Origin: a virus
Length of the DNA stretch: 64,000 bases
Strand: one strand, 5' to 3'
IMG/VR virus record: IMGVR_UViG_3300017917_001336
Location: 83,568-147,567 of that record
The notes beneath the pieces are model-generated. The model was not told the origin of the DNA, did not search any database, and saw only the letters and a program-made list of their open reading frames with translations. Both the position numbers and the translations under genes were made by a program. Positions 3,223 to 45,607 of this stretch are shown here, in pieces (within the stretch, counting starts at the first letter, position 1; every line of letters begins with the position of its first letter).

Positions 3223-4653
3223 ATGAAACAAAATACAGATTACGGTTACGATATTCAAAAAGTATATTTAGAAATGATGCTTGCAGATGCAGCAACATTT
3301 GCTCGATGTCAAACAATTTTTGATCCTAGCTTGTTTGATAGAAAATTGCAACTAGGCGCAGAGTTTATCAATGAATATATTAAAGAACATTCAGTGATGC
3401 CAACTGAAGAGATTGTAAATGCTGCTACCAGCATGAATTTTAAAGTTCCACACGATTTAAGAGAAGAGCACTTTGATTGGCTATTAAACGATTTTGAAAC
3501 TTTTACAAGGCACAAAGGTCTTGAACGTGCTATCCTTGAATCAGCAGACATGTTAGAAAAAGGTGAGTACGGAACTGTAGAAGAAAAAATTAAAAAAGCA
3601 GTACAAGTTGGTCTAACCAAAGACATGGGCACTGATTACTGGGCTGATCCTAGGGCCCGTCTAATGAAAATCAAAGATAAGAATGGTCAAATTAGTACAG
3701 GCTGGAAGTCAGTTGATGACAAACTATTTGGCGGAATGAATCGAGGCGAATTGAATATTTTTGCGGCAGCTTCGGGTGGCGGTAAGTCTTTGTTCCTTGC
3801 AAACTTAGGTGTTAACTGGGCAATGGCAGGATTAAATGTAATTTACTTAACACTTGAACTTAGTGAAGAACTAGTGTCAATGCGTGTTGATTCGATGATT
3901 ACAGGAATTCCAACTAGAGAAATTTTTAAGAGTCTTGATGATGTAGAAATGAAAGTTAAAATGATTGGTAAAAAATCTGGTAGCTTTCAAGTCAAGTACA
4001 TGCCAAGCGGTAAAACAGCAAACGATATTAGAAGTTATCTAAAAGAATATGAAATTAGAATGGGCCAAAAGTGTGATGTATTGTTAGTTGACTACTTAGA
4101 CTTGTTAATGCCAATGAGTAAGAAGATTTCAGCAGAAAACTTGTTTATTAAAGACAAGTATGTCTCTGAAGAATTGCGTAACTTAGCAATGGAAAAGAAT
4201 TGTATTTTTGTAACTGCGGCACAGTTAAATCGCGGAGCAGTTGAAGAAGTAGAATTTGATCATTCACACATTTCAGGTGGACTATCTAAAATCCAAACCG
4301 CAGATAATGTAATTGGTATCTTTACTAGTCGTGCAATGCGTGAACGTGGACGTTATCAAATTCAATTTATGAAAACACGTAGTTCTAGTGGTGTTGGACA
4401 AAAAATTGATTTAGAATTTAACATTGATACTTTAAGAATTACTGATCTTGAACAAGAAGATAGTTATGGCAATAGTAGCGTACAAAGTGCAGGTAGCACA
4501 CTATTGGCTAGTATTAAAAATCGAGCAACCGTTGATGCCCAAACTGGAGAAATTGATCCAAACAGTTTAACACCAGTACCAAAAATTAAAGCACAAGTTG
4601 AATCGAGTAAACTAAGAGAATTACTTAACAATTTACCATCCGACGATCTTTGA
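3223..4653 (+). CDS. dnaB: replicative helicase (DnaB/T4 gp41-like)
   Basis: Walker A AASGGGKS, TLELS, VDYLDL, AQLNR, KTRSS. Confidence 0.92.
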   Translation: MKQNTDYGYDIQKVYLEMMLADAATFARCQTIFDPSLFDRKLQLGAEFINEYIKEHSVMPTEEIVNAATSMNFKVPHDLREEHFDWLLNDFETFTRHKGLERAILESADMLEKGEYGTVEEKIKKAVQVGLTKDMGTDYWADPRARLMKIKDKNGQISTGWKSVDDKLFGGMNRGELNIFAAASGGGKSLFLANLGVNWAMAGLNVIYLTLELSEELVSMRVDSMITGIPTREIFKSLDDVEMKVKMIGKKSGSFQVKYMPSGKTANDIRSYLKEYEIRMGQKCDVLLVDYLDLLMPMSKKISAENLFIKDKYVSEELRNLAMEKNCIFVTAAQLNRGAVEEVEFDHSHISGGLSKIQTADNVIGIFTSRAMRERGRYQIQFMKTRSSSGVGQKIDLEFNIDTLRITDLEQEDSYGNSSVQSAGSTLLASIKNRATVDAQTGEIDPNSLTPVPKIKAQVESSKLRELLNNLPSDDL

Positions 4654-5236: not shown

Positions 5237-8002
5237 ATGAAACACGTAAGATTACCGGCGTATGACGCTTACGATTTAGATAGACTAAGCTATTCTAACG
5301 GCGAATTAGTAAATGATACAACTAATGCGATTATCCGTTATATGGACGGAGAAACCCCTGGCGGCTTTAAAATTGCTACCCAAGACTATGTGCAGGCTAA
5401 TGCTATTACACAGTCTAACTTAGATTCAGCATTAACTGTAAAATTACAACCATATGCAAAAACAACAGATTTAGCACCATACGCTCTTACAGTTGATGTA
5501 AACAATGCGATTGCTGCTATTCCAGTTTACTCATTACCAACTGCATCTACCTCAATTAAAGGTGGTGTTAAGGTTGATGGTACAACGATTCTTATCGATG
5601 GTAATGGTGTTATTAGCGGTGCTAATCAATATGTGTTGCCAACAGCCGGTGTAGGATCAGGTGGAACAAAAGGTGGTGTTAAGGTAGACGGCACAACAAT
5701 TCTTATTGATGGCAACGGTGTTATCAGTGGTGCTAACCAATATGTACTTCCTACAGCATCTACTACAGTTAAAGGTGGGGTTATTATACCTGCTGTGGGG
5801 ACTAGCGGTCTTAACAACTCAGCAGGATCGATTACACTAGCTACTGCTAGCACTACACAGTTAGGTGGTGTTAAAGTTGATGGTACAACTATTACTATCA
5901 GTAATGGAGTTATCAGCGGTAGTAATCAATACGTATTACCAACTGCAACAACATCAGTTTTAGGCGGCGTAACTGTTCCTGCAACAGCTAACTCAGGTTT
6001 AACAAATACATCAGGTGCAATACGTATTGCAACAGCTAGTACAAACCAAATTGGTGGTGTTAAAGTAGACGGTGTTACAATTACTATTAACGGTTCTGGT
6101 GTTATTTCTGCTAACATTACAGGTGCAATTATTTTCCAAGGCGGTTGGGATGCTAGTCTTAACAGTCCAACCCTAAACAACTCTAGTGGTGCATTTAACG
6201 TAAACGGTTATGAATTTGTTACAACTGTAGCTGGTACAGTAAACTTTGGTGCAGGTAACGTAACATTTGCTGTTGGTGATAACGTAATTTATGATGGTAC
6301 TAAATGGGTTAAAGTTCCTATTGGTTCAAGTGCTGGACAAACTAATAGTATATTAACAGTTAACAACTCAGGCACAGGTGATGCAAGTGGTACAACTTTT
6401 AATGGTTCTTCTCCTATAACAATCAGTTACAACTCAGTAGGAGCAAGTCCGTTAGCTGGAAGTAGTAGTTTAACAACTGTAGGCACAATAACATCTGGTA
6501 CATGGAGCGGCAATATTATTAGCCCAACTTACGGCGGTACTGGGATTAACAATGGCTCTTATACATTAACAATTACAGGCGCCAACAGAACATTAGATCA
6601 AAACGTATCGTCAGGTTCTAGCCCATCATTTGACGGAACAAACTTTTCTGGAACTGCATCAAGTTTATCAGTAGGGTCAGCTTCAAATGCAACATCAGCA
6701 ACATCAGCAGGTAAGTCAACAAACATTGCTGGTGGTACTGCTAATAGAATTCCTTATCAAACTGCTGCAGATACAACAAGTTTTATTGCTGCACCTGCAG
6801 ACGGTACATTCCTTAATTATACTACAGCAGGTGGACTAGCATGGACTAGTACAATAGCGGCTACTACTGCAACAAACGTAAGTGGTGGTGCAGCCAACAG
6901 AATTGTATATCAAACAGGTGCTAGTACTACAGGATTTATAGCTGCGCCAGCAAGTACCAACACATACTTACAATGGAACGGAACAGCGTTTGTGTTTGCC
7001 GCAGTTTCTGGTGCAACTGGTGGTACAGTAACATCTGTTAGTGGTACTGGTACAGTTAGCGGTATAACATTATCAGGTACTGTAACATCTACTGGTAACT
7101 TAACATTAGGCGGCTCTTTAAGTTTAGTAAGCCCTCCTGCAATTGGTTCAACAACACCAAACACCGGTGCATTTACTATCCTTACAGTTAACTCAGCTTC
7201 AACTTCAGCAGTTACACTAAGCCCAACAGGAACTGGTACAGTAACTATAAACCCAACAACTGCTGGTACAATTAATAACATGAGTATTGGTGCTACAACA
7301 GCATCAACTGGACGCTTTACAACAATTACGTCAACTGTTACTACTGGTACTGCTCCATTTACTGTTGCTTCAAGCACTAACGTGGCTAACTTAAATGCTA
7401 GTTCGTTAAACGGTGCAACTTTTGCAAGCCCCGGACAAATCGGTTCAGTTACTGCATCGTCAGGAAGATTTACTACTATTGAATCAACAGTAACAACAGG
7501 TACTGCACCATTTACAGTAGCGTCTACAACTAACGTGGTCAACTTAAACGCTAGTTCACTGAATGGTGCAACGTTTGCAAGTCCAGGATCAATTGGTAGT
7601 AGCGTAGCAGGCAGTGGTGCATTTACTACTGTAACTGCTACAACAAGCGTTAAGGCCAGTGGTAGTGGTGGTGTTGGTTATAACACAGGTGCTGCCGCAG
7701 GTGGTACTGTAACACAGTTAGTTTCACGTACAACAGGTGTTACCCTTAACAAAATTACTGGACAAATTACTTTGTTTACAGCAGCTGGTGATAACACTCA
7801 ATGGTTAACATTTACAGTTACTAATAGTACTGTAGTCGCAACTGACGTTGTTATTGTTACTGGAGATACTGCTACTAACAAATATATTGCCAACGTGTCT
7901 AATGTAACTGCAGGATCGTTTGATATTACTTACTTCTCTTTTGGTACAGCTATTGATGCACCAACATTTAACTTTGCTGTAATCAAAGGATCAAATAACT
8001 AA
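5237..8002 (+). CDS. tail fibre / fibre-like virion protein
   Basis: 921 aa, Gly/Thr/Ser-rich; LPTA...GGVKVDGTTI repeats; duplicated TVTTGTAPFTVAS...NLNASSLNGATFASPG; TAAATA at about 5204. Confidence 0.8.
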   Translation: MKHVRLPAYDAYDLDRLSYSNGELVNDTTNAIIRYMDGETPGGFKIATQDYVQANAITQSNLDSALTVKLQPYAKTTDLAPYALTVDVNNAIAAIPVYSLPTASTSIKGGVKVDGTTILIDGNGVISGANQYVLPTAGVGSGGTKGGVKVDGTTILIDGNGVISGANQYVLPTASTTVKGGVIIPAVGTSGLNNSAGSITLATASTTQLGGVKVDGTTITISNGVISGSNQYVLPTATTSVLGGVTVPATANSGLTNTSGAIRIATASTNQIGGVKVDGVTITINGSGVISANITGAIIFQGGWDASLNSPTLNNSSGAFNVNGYEFVTTVAGTVNFGAGNVTFAVGDNVIYDGTKWVKVPIGSSAGQTNSILTVNNSGTGDASGTTFNGSSPITISYNSVGASPLAGSSSLTTVGTITSGTWSGNIISPTYGGTGINNGSYTLTITGANRTLDQNVSSGSSPSFDGTNFSGTASSLSVGSASNATSATSAGKSTNIAGGTANRIPYQTAADTTSFIAAPADGTFLNYTTAGGLAWTSTIAATTATNVSGGAANRIVYQTGASTTGFIAAPASTNTYLQWNGTAFVFAAVSGATGGTVTSVSGTGTVSGITLSGTVTSTGNLTLGGSLSLVSPPAIGSTTPNTGAFTILTVNSASTSAVTLSPTGTGTVTINPTTAGTINNMSIGATTASTGRFTTITSTVTTGTAPFTVASSTNVANLNASSLNGATFASPGQIGSVTASSGRFTTIESTVTTGTAPFTVASTTNVVNLNASSLNGATFASPGSIGSSVAGSGAFTTVTATTSVKASGSGGVGYNTGAAAGGTVTQLVSRTTGVTLNKITGQITLFTAAGDNTQWLTFTVTNSTVVATDVVIVTGDTATNKYIANVSNVTAGSFDITYFSFGTAIDAPTFNFAVIKGSNN
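5533..6110 (+). repeat. tandem coding repeats (GGVKVDGxTI / YVLPTA) in the tail fibre
   Basis: At least four GGVKVDG units, with DNA-level similarity. Confidence 0.8.
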
Positions 8003-10002
8003 ACGCCAGCTAACTTACGCACACGAGTTAGCTCTGCGCTTTCTTTAAATCCGTCTATAGTATTTGATGCACTTGCCGGGGTATTAAAGTTTTGTGTTGG
8101 CGATTGCGGAGGAGTAGTTCCGTATGCATGGTCTACTAGCATGTCAATAAACTGTTCAACAGTATTGCCAAATGCCTTGTTAGCCGCCACTGCAGCCGCA
8201 AAACCTGTACCAGCACCGATGATAGCCGCCGGAATAACACCTATAACAGTTGGACTGGCCACAGTACCTGCCAAGGCCGCGCCAAATATAGCAGCCACAA
8301 TCTCAAGACCAAAACGTGCAATAGGTTGTGCAATAATCTTAGTAACTTCAGCACGATACTGATCCTGTGTCATCTTCTTAGGATCAAGTGCTTGATACTT
8401 GGCAACAGCATCGCTTACTTCAACGTAAATTGAATAACCTAACAACAACCAACCACCTGCTTTAAATGCAGCACCAGTAGCGGCTTTGGCATTTGTTACA
8501 GCAGTCTTAGGTGCTTGTGCTACTTTAGCGGCAAACTCATCAGCGGCTAAATCTAAACGTGTGGTGCCAATTTTAACCGAGTTCCAAGTATTTGGTAATA
8601 AACTTTTTTGAATACTGTCTTGTGGAATGCCTGTTAAGAATGCACGGAATCGAGCACTCCAAGATGCTTTACCAGCGGCACTGGATAAATCAACTGGACT
8701 GGTTTGTTGTTGGCTAACAAACTTAACAGCTTTGTTAAACAGTTTACGAAACTCTGGATCTTTAAGTGCAGAACTAAGTGCTTCCTTTTGAAACTCGGGC
8801 GCACTAGTTTTTAAACTACTACGCAAAAAATTTCTAAATTCTTTGTCCGCTACTTCACCATTGGGAAATGACTTGGGCATTTTGTTAGGGTCAACAAACT
8901 CAGCAGTAATGTTTTGATCCAAGAAGCTTTTTTCAATCATAGCAACAATTTGCTCGTTAGACATCTTGGGTTTAACATCCCGGGCCATTTGTTCCACGGC
9001 TTGTTGTAATCGTGAGTTAAGTTCTACAGGGTCACGCCAATAAGCATCACCATGATAGTCTGTGGGTATCTTAGGATTAGCTGGCGCCGCACCGGTCTTT
9101 AAACGATCACGTAACACAGCCATTTCTTGACGATGTGCTGTTAGTCGTTCGCTAGCTGACTTAATAGCAGCTTGATCACCACTGCGAGTAGCGGCAGTTA
9201 GTGTTTTTTGTAATTCAGGTTCTTGTTTGACTAATTCAGCTAAACGATCGCGATTTTCTACAGCTTGTCGTAAAAATGAGTTAGGAATAGTCTTAGGATC
9301 AGTACCCGGAGGAATAGCATCTAGTTGGGCCTTAAACTTAGCACGGTCGGCGTTTGCATTAACTCGACGCTGTGTGTCAGCCATGCTCATACCTTGTAGT
9401 GCGTTATAATGGTGATTTAATTCGTGAGCAATAGTAGAACGCATACCCTTTAAATCACTAGTAACACGATTGGTAACCCAAAGTCTGTTTGCACGTGGCC
9501 CCGGAGAATTAATATTCATGTTGCCCGTGATAGTTTCTGTGGGTATGTTAATTTGTAGTTTATGCCCTTGCTTTTCTAACCAACTAGCCATGCGGGGATC
9601 TTGGCGGAAATCACCCATGCTTGGGCGAGCATTAGCCTTGTCTGATCGGGCCAAGTCCCAGGGATCAGCAACCTTTGGATTATACTGATAGCCCGTCTTA
9701 GGATCAGCAAACCATGTACTAGCACTAGCACGGGGCATGTCAATAGTATATCCCCCATCGGGTAACTGTTTAAACTTAGCCATGGGCTCAAAGTTAACTT
9801 GCCCAGACTGCGCTAATATCTGAACTTGTGGACTTTTAAAATCTGCAGGATTAATACCCATGTCTGTTAAATTAACACGAGACCCGTCTTTGACTTTACC
9901 GGGGTTGGCATTTAAGTAGTCAATGATCTTTTGACTAATTAGTGATAGTTCCTGTTGTGCAACAGCATCTTCTTGTACTAATTGAATATATTCGCGGAGC
10001 AT
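7999..10002 (-). CDS. late protein with a Zn-metallopeptidase motif and hydrophobic C-terminal helices (probable internal/ejected virion protein)
   Basis: IAHELNHH plus distal E (YWRDPVE); Gly/Ala-rich hydrophobic segments; TAAATA upstream on minus (about 10008-10013). Confidence 0.55.
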   Translation of the reverse strand: MLREYIQLVQEDAVAQQELSLISQKIIDYLNANPGKVKDGSRVNLTDMGINPADFKSPQVQILAQSGQVNFEPMAKFKQLPDGGYTIDMPRASASTWFADPKTGYQYNPKVADPWDLARSDKANARPSMGDFRQDPRMASWLEKQGHKLQINIPTETITGNMNINSPGPRANRLWVTNRVTSDLKGMRSTIAHELNHHYNALQGMSMADTQRRVNANADRAKFKAQLDAIPPGTDPKTIPNSFLRQAVENRDRLAELVKQEPELQKTLTAATRSGDQAAIKSASERLTAHRQEMAVLRDRLKTGAAPANPKIPTDYHGDAYWRDPVELNSRLQQAVEQMARDVKPKMSNEQIVAMIEKSFLDQNITAEFVDPNKMPKSFPNGEVADKEFRNFLRSSLKTSAPEFQKEALSSALKDPEFRKLFNKAVKFVSQQQTSPVDLSSAAGKASWSARFRAFLTGIPQDSIQKSLLPNTWNSVKIGTTRLDLAADEFAAKVAQAPKTAVTNAKAATGAAFKAGGWLLLGYSIYVEVSDAVAKYQALDPKKMTQDQYRAEVTKIIAQPIARFGLEIVAAIFGAALAGTVASPTVIGVIPAAIIGAGTGFAAAVAANKAFGNTVEQFIDMLVDHAYGTTPPQSPTQNFNTPASASNTIDGFKESAELTRVRKLAGV

Positions 10003-13636: not shown

Positions 13637-13713
13637 TGGCCTGCCCGGAGGGAATCGAACCCCCAACCTACGGCTTAGAAGGCCGTTGCTCTATCCGGTT
13701 GAGCTACGGGCAG
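13637..13713 (-). tRNA. tRNA-Arg(TCT)
   Basis: Cloverleaf CTGCCCG...CGGGCAGG-CCA, anticodon loop CT-TCT-AA, GGTTCGA T-arm. Confidence 0.95.
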
Positions 13714-13718
13714 ATGAA

Positions 13719-13796
<78 letters not shown>

Positions 13797-17758: not shown

Positions 17759-17907
17759 TTAGGCTCCTCAATTTTTAAGTTAGACAACACGGCTTCTAGT
17801 GTGTCGTAAGCCATTTGCCAACGATCCCCAGGGATGTTATAGATCTGACTAATAGCATCGTTGAGAGTAGCTAGAGCCTCTAGCTTCTTGTAGTCTTGCT
17901 CAGTCAT
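17755..17907 (-). CDS. 50-aa hypothetical protein
   Basis: ATGA overlaps at both ends. Confidence 0.6.
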   Translation of the reverse strand: MTEQDYKKLEALATLNDAISQIYNIPGDRWQMAYDTLEAVLSNLKIEEPK

Positions 17908-18224
17908 TCTGCATCCTCCTCTACTGCTTCGTCTTCCAAGCAGTCAAAGCAGTCCTCTACACGATTGTGTCCCTGATAGATAGTGTAGTCGCCAATTTGT
18001 GTTTTACATTCTTTGTCAATGTACTCGAAGCCGCCGTAGTACTCTAAGCTACGGGCATTGTCGCTAACAATAACACGCTCGCCTCTGTCAATGTACACAC
18101 GGCCGCAACGGATGTCTAGTCCCAGCTTGTCAGCACTCACCCGTTCCATACCCGCTACAAAACGCTCAATGCCGTAGCTAACCTCGTCTACAACATCCAA
18201 AATGCTAGTGCAGTCTTTAAACAT
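17904..18224 (-). CDS. hypothetical early protein (LEYYGGFEY)
   Basis: Promoter and GGAGCGAA RBS. Confidence 0.75.
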   Translation of the reverse strand: MFKDCTSILDVVDEVSYGIERFVAGMERVSADKLGLDIRCGRVYIDRGERVIVSDNARSLEYYGGFEYIDKECKTQIGDYTIYQGHNRVEDCFDCLEDEAVEEDAE

Positions 18225-18280: not shown

Positions 18281-18517
18281 TCAACCCCATGCTTTCAATA
18301 ACCCTGCACAGCACACAAGTATTCCCGCAAGGTTGACAAGGATTTGTGCTTTGTTGCGTACCCTATAGCTCCACATAAAATAAAAGCTACCACCGCATAG
18401 CCCTGCTACTAAATTGTAGGGGTACAGTTGGGGGTAAAAAGACATTAATATGTACATTGTGAGGAGGCACATAGTGCCTGCCCACTGTAGCATATTATTA
18501 AACATTGTCTGCCTCAA
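18281..18517 (-). CDS. small membrane protein (about 3 TM)
   Basis: Hydrophobic segments; true start may be 18505. Confidence 0.6.
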   Translation of the reverse strand: MRQTMFNNMLQWAGTMCLLTMYILMSFYPQLYPYNLVAGLCGGSFYFMWSYRVRNKAQILVNLAGILVCCAGLLKAWG

Positions 18518-18683
18518 ATTCCATTACGTCACAGCGCAAGTCCTCTACAATGTCCTCAATCCTGCAATGCGTCTCATAGCACACGTCACTGTCACCCAGT
18601 GCATCTTGTATAAGTGCGTCTGCGTCCTCTAGCAATTCCATTGCCTCGCGCAGTTTAGCTGCTTTTTGTTTTGCTGTTAGCAT
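18498..18683 (-). CDS. hypothetical early protein (proline-free)
   Basis: Promoter and RBS; inside the GA/GG-free tract. Confidence 0.7.
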   Translation of the reverse strand: MLTAKQKAAKLREAMELLEDADALIQDALGDSDVCYETHCRIEDIVEDLRCDVMEFEADNV

Positions 18684-18761
18684 AGTGTCGCTCCTTGCTG
18701 TTTAAGTGTTTTAATTATAGCGCACATAGCCCAATCTGTCAACCATGTGCGCTTGTGTTAA

Positions 18762-19094
18762 TTAAAACGCCCCTTCAAAAATTTGTTGTGTTTCGTATGC
18801 ATACAAATCGCCTGTAGCCTTTTCGCGTACAGTAATCCAATCCTGTGCATAAAAGCGTTCTTGCTCATATGCGCTACCCATAAAAAAGTAACAGTCTACA
18901 GTCTCAAACTCAATCTCGTCTGTAGCAAATTGTTTAACAATGTATTCACCACATTCATCAGCGTCTAACGCATACCCGTGTTCACCAACGCTACCTAGTA
19001 CATTAGCAATCCAGCGTTCCTGCTGCTCTTGCGTGTCCTCTGTGTATGTAATGTCTTGCAGTTTGCACAATTTTACAAAATTACGCTTTTCCAT
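18762..19094 (-). CDS. acidic hypothetical early protein (proline-free)
   Basis: GGAGCGAA RBS; inside the GA/GG-free tract. Confidence 0.7.
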   Translation of the reverse strand: MEKRNFVKLCKLQDITYTEDTQEQQERWIANVLGSVGEHGYALDADECGEYIVKQFATDEIEFETVDCYFFMGSAYEQERFYAQDWITVREKATGDLYAYETQQIFEGAF

Positions 19095-19160
19095 TTTTCG
19101 CTCCTTCTAATTACAGTACAGCTAGTATAGCACAGCTAGCCTAGCTGTGCTGTGCTTACA

Positions 19161-19484
19161 TTACGCCTCCATGCTAGCAAGCTCGTCCTCTTGCATACCT
19201 TGTTCTGTAAAGCTAACAGCAAAGCCTACAGCGTCACTAATAGCAGTTTCAAACCCACTATCTGTATAAATGTCCCATGTGCTGTTGTGTTGCACATTTA
19301 CCATTGTATAAAATTCGCTGTCGTAAATGTTATTAATAATAGTAATACCTGTTACATTAATAACACGCCCTGCCTCACAGCCCCACAAGCCGTCGCCTGC
19401 TGTAGTAACTGTAAATGCACACATAAATTCTGTAATAATACAGTCTACGTCACGCTCGTAACGCACAAGCACTAATTTTTGCAT
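19161..19484 (-). CDS. hypothetical early protein (GDGLWG, YTDSGF, FTEQGMQ; proline-free)
   Basis: Promoter and RBS; inside the GA/GG-free tract. Confidence 0.75.
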   Translation of the reverse strand: MQKLVLVRYERDVDCIITEFMCAFTVTTAGDGLWGCEAGRVINVTGITIINNIYDSEFYTMVNVQHNSTWDIYTDSGFETAISDAVGFAVSFTEQGMQEDELASMEA

Positions 19485-19567
19485 ACATCGCTCCTTTTGC
19501 TACTTAAAAAACAATTATAGCACAGCAAGCCCAAAATGTCAACTTGCTGTGCTAATAACCCTACAGT

Positions 19568-19798
19568 TTAGTCTATTATTTGCACATTAGCACAGCGCAA
19601 AGTCTGCATAGCAGTATTAATGCTTTTTAATACTTCTGCTTGTGCATTTACATAATCTGTACTACAAATATCTCCTGTAACTAGTACAGCATTTTTAACA
19701 GTTACTACATTATGCTTATCAAAACTAAAAATTACGCGATAAGTGTTAAGACGCTTGTTTACTACTACTTTAGCTAACACAGTACAATTTGTTTGCAT
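19568..19798 (-). CDS. hypothetical early protein (proline-free)
   Basis: Promoter and GGAGCG RBS. Confidence 0.7.
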   Translation of the reverse strand: MQTNCTVLAKVVVNKRLNTYRVIFSFDKHNVVTVKNAVLVTGDICSTDYVNAQAEVLKSINTAMQTLRCANVQIID

Positions 19799-19846
19799 AC
19801 ACGCTCCTTCTAAGTGTTTGTATTATAGCGCAGCTAGCCCAAAATG

Positions 19847-20086
19847 TCAAATCCCTACAGCTTGTAGGGTCTTTAGTTCTTGTTGCAATTCTGCCACACG
19901 CTGTTTTTGCAGTTGTGCAATAAACTTGACTTTTTTAGTTTCGATGTCTTTGCGGAACTTATTAATGCTTACATTTAGCATATAAGAGGTTTGTCCGTAG
20001 CTTTGCAGCTTATTTTGTGTTTTGTACACATGAGCACGAGCGGCAGACATAGCGTATGCGTTTACAGTATTAGCGTATTGACCCAT
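19847..20086 (-). CDS. hypothetical early protein
   Basis: AAAGGA RBS after promoter 20108-20136 places the start at 20086. Confidence 0.65.
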   Translation of the reverse strand: MGQYANTVNAYAMSAARAHVYKTQNKLQSYGQTSYMLNVSINKFRKDIETKKVKFIAQLQKQRVAELQQELKTLQAVGI

Positions 20087-20104: not shown

Positions 20105-20320
20105 TGTATTATAGCACACTTTGGACCCGCTGTCAACAACCCTAACGACCGTAGGGTCTCTCATGATCCATTGACGCCTAACCCAAAAGGCAGTATAATA
20201 CATGTATTCGAACAAAGGGGGGTGGACGTCGAGGCTGGGCGTCAGTTTCTGAGCCTGAAATAAGAAAAAGTGTGGCATCTGCGCCACACTCTAGAATACC
20301 CTGGTTGACAGCAGGGTTAC
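20105..20320. repeat. divergent-promoter/small-RNA module, copy 1
   Basis: Back-to-back sigma70 promoters, TTCGAACA, GGTGGACGTCGAGG, TGT-N12-ACA box, hairpin with GTTGACA loop; homologous to 22026-22265. Confidence 0.65.
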
Positions 20321-20937: not shown

Positions 20938-21642
20938 TTATGCAGCTACAGCGATTGGAATCATACGGCGAACGAACCCAGTGGTGTCCTTCTTAGCACG
21001 ACCCTTAGCCTTAAGCCCTGCGATGCAACCCTTAGGGTCCAAAAAGCGCAGGTCAGTGTCGTCTGCATTAATTACAGGACGGCCCATGTAAGAGTCTGGG
21101 AGCTTGTCAAAGACAGCAGCCACGTTCATACCTGCACTCACTGCCTTTTGTACGTCTGCTTCGTTACCGTCTGCAGCTGAGAACGTCAAGTGATAGTTGG
21201 GCAGGTGTGCTACCTTGCGTCCAAGCACCTTAGTATAGTCATAGAACTGTACATTGGGGAACTTCTCAATGATACCGTACTTCTCCCAAGCCAAGTCCGA
21301 TGTACCGTTAAGGCGGAACACGGGTGTCAAACCCAGCTTCGCAGACTGTTTGATGCCCAGCTTGATGTCCTTCTCCAGCTGAGCCATAAATGCATCACGC
21401 TGCTCAAAGAACATCCTAGTCTTGCGAATGCGAGCCTGCTGGATCATGTTGGTGTTTTCACCGCGCTTGAACATACCACCGCGCCCGGCAGTATTCAAAC
21501 AGGCAGCGGTACAGCCTGCGGTGCGCTTAGGGCAAGTCTCCTTACCGGACAGCGTCGCAGGAGCAAGATGCAGAATAAAGCTAAGATAGCCCAATTTTGC
21601 ACCCTTTTGGATCTTGGGATTTGCAGTACTTAGAAGTTTCAT
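20938..21642 (-). CDS. gp88-like protein (Cys-triad, radical-SAM-like)
   Basis: CPKRTAGCTAACLNTAGRG, FRLNGTSD, QFYDYTK, NYHLTFS, DLRFLD, GLKAKG. Confidence 0.7.
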   Translation of the reverse strand: MKLLSTANPKIQKGAKLGYLSFILHLAPATLSGKETCPKRTAGCTAACLNTAGRGGMFKRGENTNMIQQARIRKTRMFFEQRDAFMAQLEKDIKLGIKQSAKLGLTPVFRLNGTSDLAWEKYGIIEKFPNVQFYDYTKVLGRKVAHLPNYHLTFSAADGNEADVQKAVSAGMNVAAVFDKLPDSYMGRPVINADDTDLRFLDPKGCIAGLKAKGRAKKDTTGFVRRMIPIAVAA

Positions 21643-22025: not shown

Positions 22026-22265
22026 CGTATTATAGCATTCCGAGCCCAAACTGTCAACCACAATAACCCTACAGCTGACTCGGGTATTTTTGCCCCGAGT
22101 TGACAGCCTGCCCAAAATGCAGTATAATTTGGGCATAGGTTCGAACAGCTACACTGGGGATGGACGGCGAGGGTGCGCAGGTGATTCTAAGTTAGTAAGT
22201 GCCAACTTAGCCCGTGGTTAAAATACAACAAACTAGAAAAACCCGGTTGACAAAACGGGTTTTTG
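22026..22265. repeat. divergent-promoter/small-RNA module, copy 2
   Basis: Promoters 22029-22057(-) and 22100-22128(+), TTCGAACA, GATGGACGGCGAGG, box 22213-22230, hairpin with GTTGACA loop. Confidence 0.65.
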
Positions 22266-27591: not shown

Positions 27592-28016
27592 TGTTAGATT
27601 GTTTAATTCTAGGCGATAGCCTTGCAGTAGGTGTAGGACAAATCCGCAAAGAGTGTGTTACTTACGCAAAAAGCGGAATCAATAGTTATGACTATGTTAA
27701 TCGTCATGTGTTGCATACTAACGGTTCAAACAAAGAAGCTAAGACTGTTATTATCAGCTTAGGTAGTAATGACACAAAGAACATCGAAACGTACGACGAA
27801 CTAGATACATTGCGTCAAATGGTTAAAGCAGATCGTGTATATTGGATACTGCCTAACATTAAAGAAACAAAACGCAAAGCCGTTTGGATGGTTGCTGACA
27901 AATACAAAGATCATGTTATTGATGCTAGACAGTATGACCGCAGTCCAGATCATGTACATCCAACTTATACAGGCTACAAAGGCATAGCAAATGAAACCCG
28001 TCGTACTGACCGTTGA
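27591..28016 (+). CDS. SGNH/GDSL hydrolase
   Basis: GDSLAVG, SLGSND, DHVHP. Confidence 0.8.
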   Translation: MLDCLILGDSLAVGVGQIRKECVTYAKSGINSYDYVNRHVLHTNGSNKEAKTVIISLGSNDTKNIETYDELDTLRQMVKADRVYWILPNIKETKRKAVWMVADKYKDHVIDARQYDRSPDHVHPTYTGYKGIANETRRTDR

Positions 28017-42724: not shown

Positions 42725-42757
42725 ACTAAATAGTAGTTGTTATCAAGGACAATTACA

Positions 42758-43570
42758 ATGAAGAAGTTTTTAGTTTTGCTAGCACTTGTTTCTACACAAG
42801 TGTTTGCATGGGAGCAACGTGCCCCATTACCCGTACAAAATTGCCAAGTACACAGCCCTTATGGATGGGCACAATCCAGTAGACCAGCAAGTCCAATTTG
42901 CCGAGAAGCATATCTAGTAGCATACGATGCTCCGGTTAAGATTCCGGCTTATGTTGCCTACACACTACTTCCACAAAACGCCTTAGGATGCTTTCCACGT
43001 ACGAACGCATTCGTTGCGGATCAGTCAGTTCCAGGAGGTGCTACTCCTAATGACTACGCAGGCACAGGCTACGACAAAGGACATGCTGCTCCCGATGGTG
43101 ACCTAAGTTGGTCACAGATTGTGGAGTATGAGAGTTTCCTAATGACAAATATGTACCCACAACACGGATCATTAAATCGTGGCATATGGAAACTACTAGA
43201 AACTTCAGTACGTGGGTGGACGGTACAGCAGAATCGTCCGTTTACTATCTACGTGGGGGCATTCTATGGCGCTGGTGATCCATTTATTGGTAATGGAGTT
43301 ATTGTTCCACACGGTTACTATAAAATCGTTATTGACCAACAAACAGGTGCTATTGCTGGCTGGGCATTCCCACATACTAAACCATATGTTAATTTAGGCA
43401 ATGACTTAACTAAGTTTCGTGTGCCGGTAGCACAAATACAACAACAAGCAGGGATCACATTCAAGTATCCTGCTAACGCAAAAGAATTACAACCAGGACA
43501 AGAGTGGCCTGTAGACTATGGAGCATTAACAAATGCTAAACGTGCTAAGTGTGGTAAAAATGCAGAATGA
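42758..43570 (+). CDS. secreted DNA/RNA non-specific endonuclease (NucA/EndoG family)
   Basis: Signal peptide; YDKGHAAP, TNMYPQ..LNRGIW..LE. Confidence 0.9.
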   Translation: MKKFLVLLALVSTQVFAWEQRAPLPVQNCQVHSPYGWAQSSRPASPICREAYLVAYDAPVKIPAYVAYTLLPQNALGCFPRTNAFVADQSVPGGATPNDYAGTGYDKGHAAPDGDLSWSQIVEYESFLMTNMYPQHGSLNRGIWKLLETSVRGWTVQQNRPFTIYVGAFYGAGDPFIGNGVIVPHGYYKIVIDQQTGAIAGWAFPHTKPYVNLGNDLTKFRVPVAQIQQQAGITFKYPANAKELQPGQEWPVDYGALTNAKRAKCGKNAE

Positions 43571-44119: not shown

Positions 44120-45607
44120 ATGAGATCTAAAGAGTTTACGCCAGGCAACAGAGATTTAATTATCTTTGATATTGACGATACACTACTTCATACGACTGCT
44201 AAAATTAAAGTCATAGATGCCAACGGCAATATAGTAAGAGATTTAACTAATCAAGAGTTTAACAATTACCAACTCCGCCCAGGCGAGCAATTTGATTTTG
44301 GAGAGTTTCGTAGTGCTGAAAAGTTTCGTCAAGAAAGCCAGCCTATTGTCCCAATGATACGTAAACTCAAAACAATATTATCGCATGCCGGTACTGCTAA
44401 AGTTATCATGCTTACCGCTCGCGCAGATTTTGATAATAAAGAAGAATTCCTACAAACATTTCAAGACTTAGGAATTGACATGAGTCGTGTGCATGTTCAT
44501 CGCGCAGGCAACTTACCTGGCAACGAACCACCAGCGTACAAAAAAGCAGTTTGGGTACGCAAGTATTTAGATACGCAACAGTATGGGCATGTTCGCTTAT
44601 ATGACGACAGCATGAGCAATTTAAAAGTCTTCAAAGAACTAAAAAATGAGTATCCTCAGGTAGACTTTAGAGCATTATATGTAGGCCCTACTGGCAGCAC
44701 ACAAGTAGTCGAAAATCAAGATGATTATGAAATACGCAATTACGAAAAGTTAGATAATATATTGCATGAACTAACAAACTTAGTAATTAAAGGACAAAAG
44801 AAAGACCCTGACAAATACGGCATGGTTGCAGCCGCAGTATTAGATATGGACAACAATCTTGTTCAAGGTATTAATTCTCCAGCATCTGACGGGAAACGTA
44901 AACATGCTGAGCGAGTTGCTATTGATAGATATGTAAAACAATATGGAGATATTCCAGAAGGAAGTATTATCATAACAACTTGTAGTCCGTGCAGTGAGTA
45001 TATGGACGAAAGGTATGGAGAAGATTGCACAGAATTAATTAATCAACACGGTGTTAAAAAAGTCTATGCAGGGTACATGGATCCGACACAAGAGGAAGAA
45101 CATAGAGATTTTAATATTATAGAAACTGAAAACAGTTCTATAAGAGATATGTGTAAAGAGTTTGCTGATACTTTTTTACATTTAAGAGAAAGCTACAAAT
45201 CAATAAAAGAATTTGCACCTGATGACGGATCAGGCGATGAAGAAGAAACATTACTTAAATATGCACGTTTGTGGTATAGAGGTAACTTAGATACACAACA
45301 ACAAGTTGAAAAAGTACTAGCTCGCATGGGTTGGGAAATTGGAGAGCTAGAGTCAGAAGAAGGCGGCGCATTTGTTGTGCAATCTGGAGACGAACACGGC
45401 AATAGTTATATAGGCTTTGCCGCTGACGACTTACTAGAAAACTTTGCAGATGGAAAGAATCCTGGACGCAAAGGTTTAGCAAAGCGTAGTGGAGTGAATT
45501 GTAAAGCAAGTGTTTCTACGCTACGTAATGTAGCAAAAAATAGTAGCGGTGAAAAGCAACGTATGGCACATTGGTGTGCTAATATGAAAAGCGGGAGAAA
45601 GAAATGA
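44120..45607 (+). CDS. multidomain protein: HAD phosphatase + cytidine-deaminase-like domain + small modules
   Basis: IFDIDDTL, LTAR, YDD..N; HAE...SPC...C. Confidence 0.7.
   Translation: MRSKEFTPGNRDLIIFDIDDTLLHTTAKIKVIDANGNIVRDLTNQEFNNYQLRPGEQFDFGEFRSAEKFRQESQPIVPMIRKLKTILSHAGTAKVIMLTARADFDNKEEFLQTFQDLGIDMSRVHVHRAGNLPGNEPPAYKKAVWVRKYLDTQQYGHVRLYDDSMSNLKVFKELKNEYPQVDFRALYVGPTGSTQVVENQDDYEIRNYEKLDNILHELTNLVIKGQKKDPDKYGMVAAAVLDMDNNLVQGINSPASDGKRKHAERVAIDRYVKQYGDIPEGSIIITTCSPCSEYMDERYGEDCTELINQHGVKKVYAGYMDPTQEEEHRDFNIIETENSSIRDMCKEFADTFLHLRESYKSIKEFAPDDGSGDEEETLLKYARLWYRGNLDTQQQVEKVLARMGWEIGELESEEGGAFVVQSGDEHGNSYIGFAADDLLENFADGKNPGRKGLAKRSGVNCKASVSTLRNVAKNSSGEKQRMAHWCANMKSGRKK

Follow-up and report, generated by a model that had tools for sequence, protein, structure and literature searches.

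The DNA analysed here, hereafter the window, comprises 64,000 nucleotides (nt) of a virus and corresponds to positions 83,568 to 147,567 of the IMG/VR record IMGVR_UViG_3300017917_001336. On its minus strand it carries one immediate-early transcription unit of four small genes, with host-type sigma-70 promoters and strong ribosome-binding sites, which is shown here to be kept free of the step 5'-YC-3' (TC or CC; Y, pyrimidine) in its message, that is, of 5'-GR-3' (GA or GG; R, purine) in its template, by purifying selection in this one orientation. Here we describe the tract and its limits, its conservation in related phages and the evidence for selection, together with an assessment of the possible readers of the banned step.

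Between the GG at position 18466 and the GA at 19738, the plus strand contains neither GA nor GG over a gap of 1272 nt (18467-19737). The second-longest gap of this kind measures 156 nt, both in the window and in the entire 147,567-bp contig, in which the tract is the sole one of its kind; for the other dinucleotide classes the maximum gap in the window is at most about 320 nt. On the message (minus) strand all 194 C residues follow a purine, and YC is absent, whereas the composition of the flanking early genes predicts about 110 (Poisson P ~1e-48). TC and CC are still frequent on the plus strand throughout the tract, so the effect is strand-specific. The message strand contains 25% G as compared with 15% C, and it is T that is raised, not the purines. 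As the genes lie on the minus strand, the lack of GA and GG on the plus strand leaves their message without TC and CC and hence without proline codons, and the four open reading frames (ORFs; 61, 110, 107 and 76 amino acids (aa), 354 aa in total) encode not a single proline.

The ban is not a codon effect, because codon junctions and intergenic DNA obey it too. Junctions of the type Y|C number 0 against 18 expected under codon-order shuffling (none of 5000 shuffles reached 0), and the 258 nt of intergenic DNA within the tract contain 0 YC against about 22 expected. Changes that create a YC make up 22% (835) of all single substitutions possible in the tract, and none of them is present; the ban is also respected within hairpin stems and to the last codon of the tract. 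Since no site has escaped purging, even next to the last stop codon, we infer a reader that acts site by site. A longer motif was sought among the rare tolerated YC sites and none was found. Generic avoidance of palindromes or restriction sites was rejected, as the 6-mer palindromes that the ban allows occur at normal frequency (9.4 per kb in the tract vs 9.3 per kb in the flanks). The sequence reads equally well as 'no YC in the RNA or non-template strand' and as 'no GR in the template strand'.

The YC-poor zone of the window holds 2 YC in 1401 nt. Its start at 19867 lies 17 nt 5' of the -35 element of the first promoter, and its end 31 nt past the last stop codon. In one relative (locus L016) it starts 33 nt 5' of a -35 and ends 38 nt past the stop codon, and overall the zones start 17-35 nt 5' of a -35 and end 0-43 nt past a stop codon; the unit of selection therefore looks like the transcription unit. 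Depletion fades across 17.9-18.2 kb and 19.74-20.1 kb. The tract belongs to an island of early genes on the minus strand, at about 10-24 kb of the window, and the patch that forms its sharp 3' boundary (Table 1) ranks in the top 0.6% of the 48-nt windows of this island for YC. The 3' flanks of the relatives are YC-rich only in some cases, and the 216 nt 3' of the tract have no more folding potential than shuffled sequence (z -1.3).

An initial annotation, made from the sequence alone, had reported the absence of GA and GG from the plus strand at 18467-19737, each G there being followed by C or T, the persistence of TC and CC on the same strand, four proline-free proteins, fading over about 17.9-20.1 kb and a negligible role of chance, and had proposed a strand-specific constraint on the nucleic acid that overrides coding. 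The counts above bear out all of these points.

Conservation and selective origin of the ban

A search of IMG/VR with the protein of the 107-aa gene (gene X) yielded 24 loci. All 18 loci at 56-86% identity carry a YC-free coding-strand tract of 415-1422 nt over or beside the gene X homologue; in one of them (L018) the longest tracts cover paralogues that follow further downstream. Loci at about 40% identity to gene X have no YC-free tract. Four NCBI metagenome contigs carry the same YC-free tract as well. In the lineage of L009-L017 (GC content 50%) the tract consists of gene X and its promoter alone. Regarding gene X itself, 13 relatives hold 0-3 YC where about 20 are expected under synonymous resampling, at a synonymous divergence (dS) from the copy in the window that ranges from 0.6 to saturation (>2) and a ratio of nonsynonymous to synonymous divergence (dN/dS) of 0.15-0.25. 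The gene X family comprises 2846 homologue clusters in metagenomes.

Several unrelated families occur solely in a YC-poor state. The family of the 76-aa gene has moved by about 4.5 kb in L005 and has remained YC-poor there, so the property follows the genes. Locus L018 has three separate tracts, covering promoters, 140-nt leaders and intrinsic terminators, and its YC-free 137- and 138-aa proteins share with gene X the motif (S/T)E(S/Q)GMQ(E)D. At 4440-4630 and 6252-6479 of this locus, two paralogous YC-free genes each have a promoter and a 140-nt leader without any GA, GG, TC or CC, and the -35 of these promoters is TTGCAT instead of TTGACA. Each of the two leaders contains a hairpin and then a T8 run, an arrangement that could be an attenuator. 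In L020-L024, which belong to another phage group (GC content 37%; e.g., L020 4591-6621), the gene X domain forms the C-terminal portion of an acidic protein of 676 aa, the N-terminus of which matches PHROG 13484 ('virion structural protein'); the gene is YC-normal and has prolines.

The codons of 24 low-YC genes were compared with those of 150 ordinary early genes. The frequency of serine is unchanged in the low-YC genes (4.7%), with 100% AGY codons. ACC, GCC and GTC mainly give way to ACA, GCA and GTA, not to T-ending codons; GAC, GGC, AGC and CAC are retained or enriched; and proline falls from 3.4% to 0. The ban is selection against YC as such, acting on the nucleic acid, and neither a loss of C nor a decay of C to T. 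This follows from the AGY serines, the A-ending replacements, the codon junctions, the intergenic DNA and the persistence of the tract through saturated synonymous divergence. The serine and A-ending codons, the retention of C after purines and the same persistence speak against purging by a TC/CC-specific deaminase or by ultraviolet mutation, as had been suggested initially.

It is highly improbable that the tract goes back to a single hypermutation event, to neutral mutational erosion or to an assembly or polishing artefact. A loss of G to A at GG and GA does resemble the APOBEC hypermutation of retroviruses, but the tract is found in independent assemblies, in many samples and in lineages that are 56-86% identical in protein, its ORFs are intact at the low dN/dS given above, and serine is kept via AGY. 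An erosion footprint of the APOBEC type, with T-ending codons, Ser(TCN) turned into Leu or Phe and damaged ORFs, was looked for and is not seen. The assembly artefact, which the initial annotation had named as a refutation, is countered by the 18 IMG/VR loci and the four NCBI contigs.

The contig is about 40% complete according to CheckV. Homologous contigs span 275-377 kb, which suggests a genome of about 350 kb. The DnaB helicase is nearest to that of the PA5oct group of Pseudomonas giant phages (51%), with PA5oct as the nearest cultured relative, and one aminotransferase gives a weak hint at a host among the Alphaproteobacteria. The coding strands of the contig are 54.3% purine, with 95% of the genes above 50%, and its genes contain 6.3 YC vs 10.4 GR per 100 nt of coding strand. 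Ordinary genes of the early island lie above this genome average, at about 8.7 YC per 100 nt.

Candidate readers of the banned step

As to what reads the step, and what the four proteins do, we infer the following. The most likely reader, with a probability of about 0.35, would be a guanine modification of the phage clade itself, directed at GA and GG and kept off the template strand of the first genes. In PA5oct, modified G in GA and/or GG was inferred from resistance to EcoRI, BmrI, XbaI and BsaI, and the genome has QueE and PTPS genes (PMC12191111). The banned template step, a G followed by a purine, is the motif inferred for PA5oct. If the giant-phage clade modifies guanine in GA and GG as reported for that phage, the first genes would be written so that their template strand bears no modified G, and host RNA polymerase could transcribe these genes from the fully modified incoming genome without hindrance and give rise to the first proteins. 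Alternatively, the YC-free unit would be spared template-strand nicks by modification-dependent host nucleases. Ordinary early genes retain the motif and would thus be read more slowly or later.

Among the relatives, the contig of L005 (G001) carries an 840-nt YC-free tract and encodes GTP cyclohydrolase I (FolE, 2.5e-48), a purine phosphoribosyltransferase and a QueE-like radical-SAM protein (1.8e-15, below the cut-off, although the five best NCBIfam matches are all QueE); QueC and QueD were not found in it by Pfam. The FolE/QueE-like cluster lies about 150 kb from gene X. It occupies 41.9-48.4 kb of G001 (loci L044 and L048) and comprises genes for a highly conserved 364-aa protein, GTP cyclohydrolase I, the purine phosphoribosyltransferase, dCMP deaminase, the QueE-like radical-SAM protein and a 5'-3' exonuclease. 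It may be a nucleotide-level route to modified guanine. The homologues of the 364-aa protein beside FolE are named glycosyltransferase by the Joint Genome Institute and are 75-83% identical among the best 120 of more than 8000 clusters; the protein had been considered as a TGT-like enzyme and was rejected as such, being not TGT-like. A search for DpdA with PF01702 gave none in the genomes studied here and was likewise blank in phages CAjan and PA5oct, and hence is blind to phage DpdA. DpdA is known to be present in the Queuovirinae-type genome of CAjan.

PA5oct contains six segments of 104-217 nt that are free of GA, GG, TC and CC, against an expected maximum of 68 nt, and such segments surround TTGCAA-N17-TATAAT promoters (Table 1). 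One segment lies directly 5' of an annotated 'lncRNA' based on RNA-seq, and a second several hundred nt 5' of another. Bans on both strands of promoter DNA, in L018 as in PA5oct, call for a reader at the DNA level, as they are not explained by an RNA-only reader, and the strictness of the ban (none of 835 possible sites, to the 3' end and inside stems) fits a site-wise obstacle.

Several points weigh against the guanine modification. In the phage of the window it is putative and carried over from PA5oct. No genes for FolE, QueD, QueE or QueC were found in its contig, which is about 40% complete and ends short of the region that holds FolE and QueE in G001. PA5oct has no gene-length tract on one strand, only a region at 39.4-41.0 kb, immediately after the 39-kb terminal repeat, in which YC drops three-fold, and both-strand segments in the contig of the window do not exceed chance length. 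GA and GG do occur on the non-template strand of the tract's promoters, where they include the G of the -35. The 7-deazaguanines retain their Watson-Crick face, and we know of no block that they pose to RNA polymerase. Finally, the ban is confined to four of about 25 early genes. The initial annotation had listed a GR-directed guanine modification among its options, with CAjan as the precedent. PA5oct and the FolE and QueE-like genes of G001 have made this option the leading candidate, but CAjan itself, with preQ0 mapped at GA and GGC, has no motif-free tract beyond chance. Thus, the known 7-deazaguanine modifications (GA and GGC in CAjan, GA and/or GG in PA5oct) share their motif with the banned template step, whereas CAjan has no tract and PA5oct has promoter-sized both-strand segments only; the modification proposed here is putative. 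A template strand kept motif-free for the first genes has not been described previously and would be new.

The initial options were right to place the constraint on nucleic acid, but they left out readers at the RNA level such as Rho. The six primary-site clefts of Rho, through which this termination factor contacts nascent RNA, are specific for 5'-YC (PMC12360218), Rho of Escherichia coli reads up to six CC or UC (PMC13323073), and Rho avoidance drives the purine bias of coding strands and limits foreign genes (Dierksheide et al. 2026, PMC13323073). Transcripts without UC and CC could not load host Rho, so the genes would be transcribed with or without trailing ribosomes, and one of the products might in addition neutralise Rho for the remaining early genes. 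Such an escape from Rho ranks second among the readings and is less likely than not. The step matches the specificity of Rho exactly, the effect would be strand-specific by nature, and a precedent exists for Rho avoidance shaping coding-strand composition (PMC13323073). The purine content and the low YC of the phage's coding strands as a whole agree with it, as do the absence of YC together with C below G (15% vs 25%) on the nascent RNA strand of the tract, the C-rich, YC-dense patch immediately 3' of the unit and zone limits that track promoter and stop codon. However, several YC over 60-80 nt are needed for Rho, so that isolated sites should be nearly neutral, and yet every one of the 835 possible sites is avoided. 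A cumulative effect predicts a bias that relaxes near the 3' end, whereas the ban stays absolute until 0-43 nt beyond the last stop codon and includes hairpin stems; moreover, C is replaced by T rather than by a purine, and YC amounts to 8-10 per 100 nt in adjacent early genes whose promoters are identical. Escape from Rho does not account for the bans that affect both strands of promoters and leaders in L018 and PA5oct, and no homologue of Psu or Rof was found in searches, of which that for Psu was run without a positive control. Known Rho avoidance concerns the same dinucleotide class on the same strand, that of the nascent RNA, and in both cases composition, not translation, would protect the genes; the known form is a mild genome-wide purine bias (54% vs 46%), whereas the ban here is absolute, affects few genes, reaches up to the stop codon and has cost all prolines.

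Unlikely, in our view, is an enzyme that cuts or modifies single-stranded RNA at YC, be it a host defence RNase or ADP-ribosyltransferase or a shut-off RNase of the phage, and from which YC-free mRNAs would escape and persist. The purging extends over entire transcription units, in L018 also over leaders and terminators, the strictness is site-wise, the property follows the gene (the 76-aa family in L005), and the small acidic products are typical of early anti-defence genes, all of which would suit such an enzyme; but a YC-specific RNase or RNA-modifying enzyme was not found in the literature, CmdT targets GA, a step that these mRNAs keep, and the both-strand bans in the relatives are again left unexplained. 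A paper on Csm6, considered as a reader, gave no motif. ACA-less mRNAs survive MazF and GCU-less genes survive MqsR, and there, too, entire messages without a short target survive a global RNA-directed activity; the targets of these mRNA interferases are at least 3 nt long and the enzymes are known, whereas a YC-specific RNase is not. At the level of single-stranded DNA, an APOBEC-like deaminase or dC-specific nuclease could act on the exposed non-template strand of the most transcribed first genes, with its sites being selected away. TC and CC are the context of APOBEC3, the non-template strand is a known target of transcription-dependent deamination, and the unequal bans on the two strands in the relatives, strong on one and weaker on the other, would be accounted for. 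This is nevertheless distinctly improbable, as a bacterial defence of such a kind is not known and none was found, and early genes outside the unit are unpurged although they have the same consensus promoters; the preference for A-ending over T-ending replacements excludes simple decay, though not selection. DarT2 (TNTC), likewise among the initial options, was rejected, because all CC and all TC are absent whatever the base at -2, and avoidance of TNTC would account neither for CC nor for most TC. DarT1 does not fit either, as it lacks a consensus motif (PMC11543638). More broadly, and as a serious though tentative possibility, an undescribed factor of host defence or phage shut-off may read YC on single-stranded RNA or DNA site by site, and a very abundant clade of aquatic phages of about 350 kb may keep its first-expressed counter-genes invisible to it, proteins included. 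The first-step-transfer region of phage T5 and the early region of T7 are first-entering DNA free of restriction sites, and in these phages, likewise, the DNA used first lacks a target, which allows counter-defence genes to be expressed. Unlike in T5 and T7, the ban here concerns a dinucleotide in one orientation, and allowed palindromes occur at normal frequency.

Genes, promoters and neighbouring elements

Nearly every small gene of the early island has its own TTGACA-17-TATAAT promoter and AAGGAGCG ribosome-binding site. The features of the YC-free unit and its surroundings are shown in Table 1.

Table 1. Coordinates of the YC-free unit, its genes and promoters in the window, and of the both-strand segments in PA5oct
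Feature	Position	Strand	Remarks
YC-free tract	18467..19737	-	Message strand without TC and CC, template (plus) strand without GA and GG; 0 YC vs ~110 expected
76-aa gene	19568..19798	-	First of the unit; basic, no Pro; YC only at 19738 and 19750 (5' end)
Gene X, 107 aa	19161..19484	-	No Pro; conserved core of the ban in relatives
110-aa gene	18762..19094	-	Acidic protein; no YC, no Pro
61-aa gene	18498..18683	-	Acidic protein; no YC, no Pro; family YC-free also in L001 and L003
106-aa gene	17904..18224	-	Next downstream; partly depleted, 2.8 YC per 100 nt vs 8-10
Promoter of the 76-aa gene	19822..19850	-	Consensus sigma-70, TTGACA-17-TATAAT
Promoter of gene X	19514..19554	-	Consensus, extended -10 TG; perfect 12-nt inverted repeat (19518-19529 / 19543-19554) encloses the -35
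Promoter of the 61-aa gene	18714..18753	-	Consensus; perfect 9-nt inverted repeat (18719-18727 / 18745-18753) encloses the -35
Intergenic inverted repeat 5' of the 110-aa gene	19108..19158	-	With TGnTATACT extended -10-like element; hairpin 19124-19156
Sharp 3' boundary	18420..18467	-	12 YC in 48 nt; C-rich, G-poor; from 31 nt past the last stop codon
PA5oct (NC_071039.1) segments free of all four dinucleotides	267340-267557, 239310-239459, 277084-277227, 264997-265138, 27593-27698, 21065-21169, 8185-8271		86-217 nt

The two YC of the 76-aa gene occupy identical positions in L001 and L003. Its coding strand is also poor in GA and GG (3.5 per 100 nt vs 11-16 elsewhere), and this poverty extends to the homologues (L001 5685-5921, L005 10543-10797); the basic protein is nearly without Asp, Glu and Gly, and the effect may lie at the nucleotide or at the protein level. 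The TGnTATACT element 5' of the 110-aa gene is a putative promoter. Early promoters are placed inside hairpins at 19518-19554, 18719-18753 and 19124-19156, and also at about 6318-6350 of L009 and about 6310-6345 of L016, with a perfect 9-12-nt inverted repeat that has one arm just 5' of the -35 and the other in the spacer beside the -10. Read-through RNA over such a hairpin would form a stem-loop with the -35 in the loop, which may serve as a 3' end or as a processing signal joined to the promoter that follows.

The predicted fold of gene X consists of four long beta strands and two helices (pLDDT 86). The model gave no significant match in PDB and BFVD and no usable match in the ESM Atlas. 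None of the four tract proteins could be assigned to a family of PHROGs or Pfam, and the 110-aa protein has no relative in IMG/VR. Among cultured phages, no match was found with the DNA of the tract region or, by tblastn, with gene X.

Inside the minus-strand early island there are two paralogous plus-strand units (20160-20300 and 22089-22229, 77% identical), each with a promoter close to the sigma-70 consensus and, behind it, about 80 nt of conserved G-rich sequence. Both may encode small RNAs antisense to the early island; a search of Rfam gave no match for them. The island also contains genes for tRNA-Arg(TCT) and tRNA-Met(CAT) at 13637-13796 (minus strand). Elsewhere in the window, 44120-45607 (plus strand) encodes a 495-aa protein that combines a central dCMP/cytidine deaminase domain with a weakly HAD-like N-terminus, near a 277-aa DNA/RNA non-specific endonuclease (Endonuclease_NS) encoded at 42737-43570 (plus strand).

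Biological meaning

Phages are known to avoid target motifs. No description of an absolute, orientation-specific dinucleotide ban that rewrites whole proteins was found in the literature. The more than 2800 clusters of gene X in metagenomes, together with genomes of about 350 kb, indicate that the ban is common in nature. In uncultured giant phages, YC-free tracts point to the very first genes, and these first genes are probably enriched in anti-defence functions. If the guanine modification is the reader, a modification-free template strand would be a new way of ordering early gene expression. If it is Rho, the tract would represent a sequence-encoded immunity to Rho and would reveal Rho as a front-line barrier to phage; a YC-specific enzyme, if this proves true, would be a new defence or shut-off activity.

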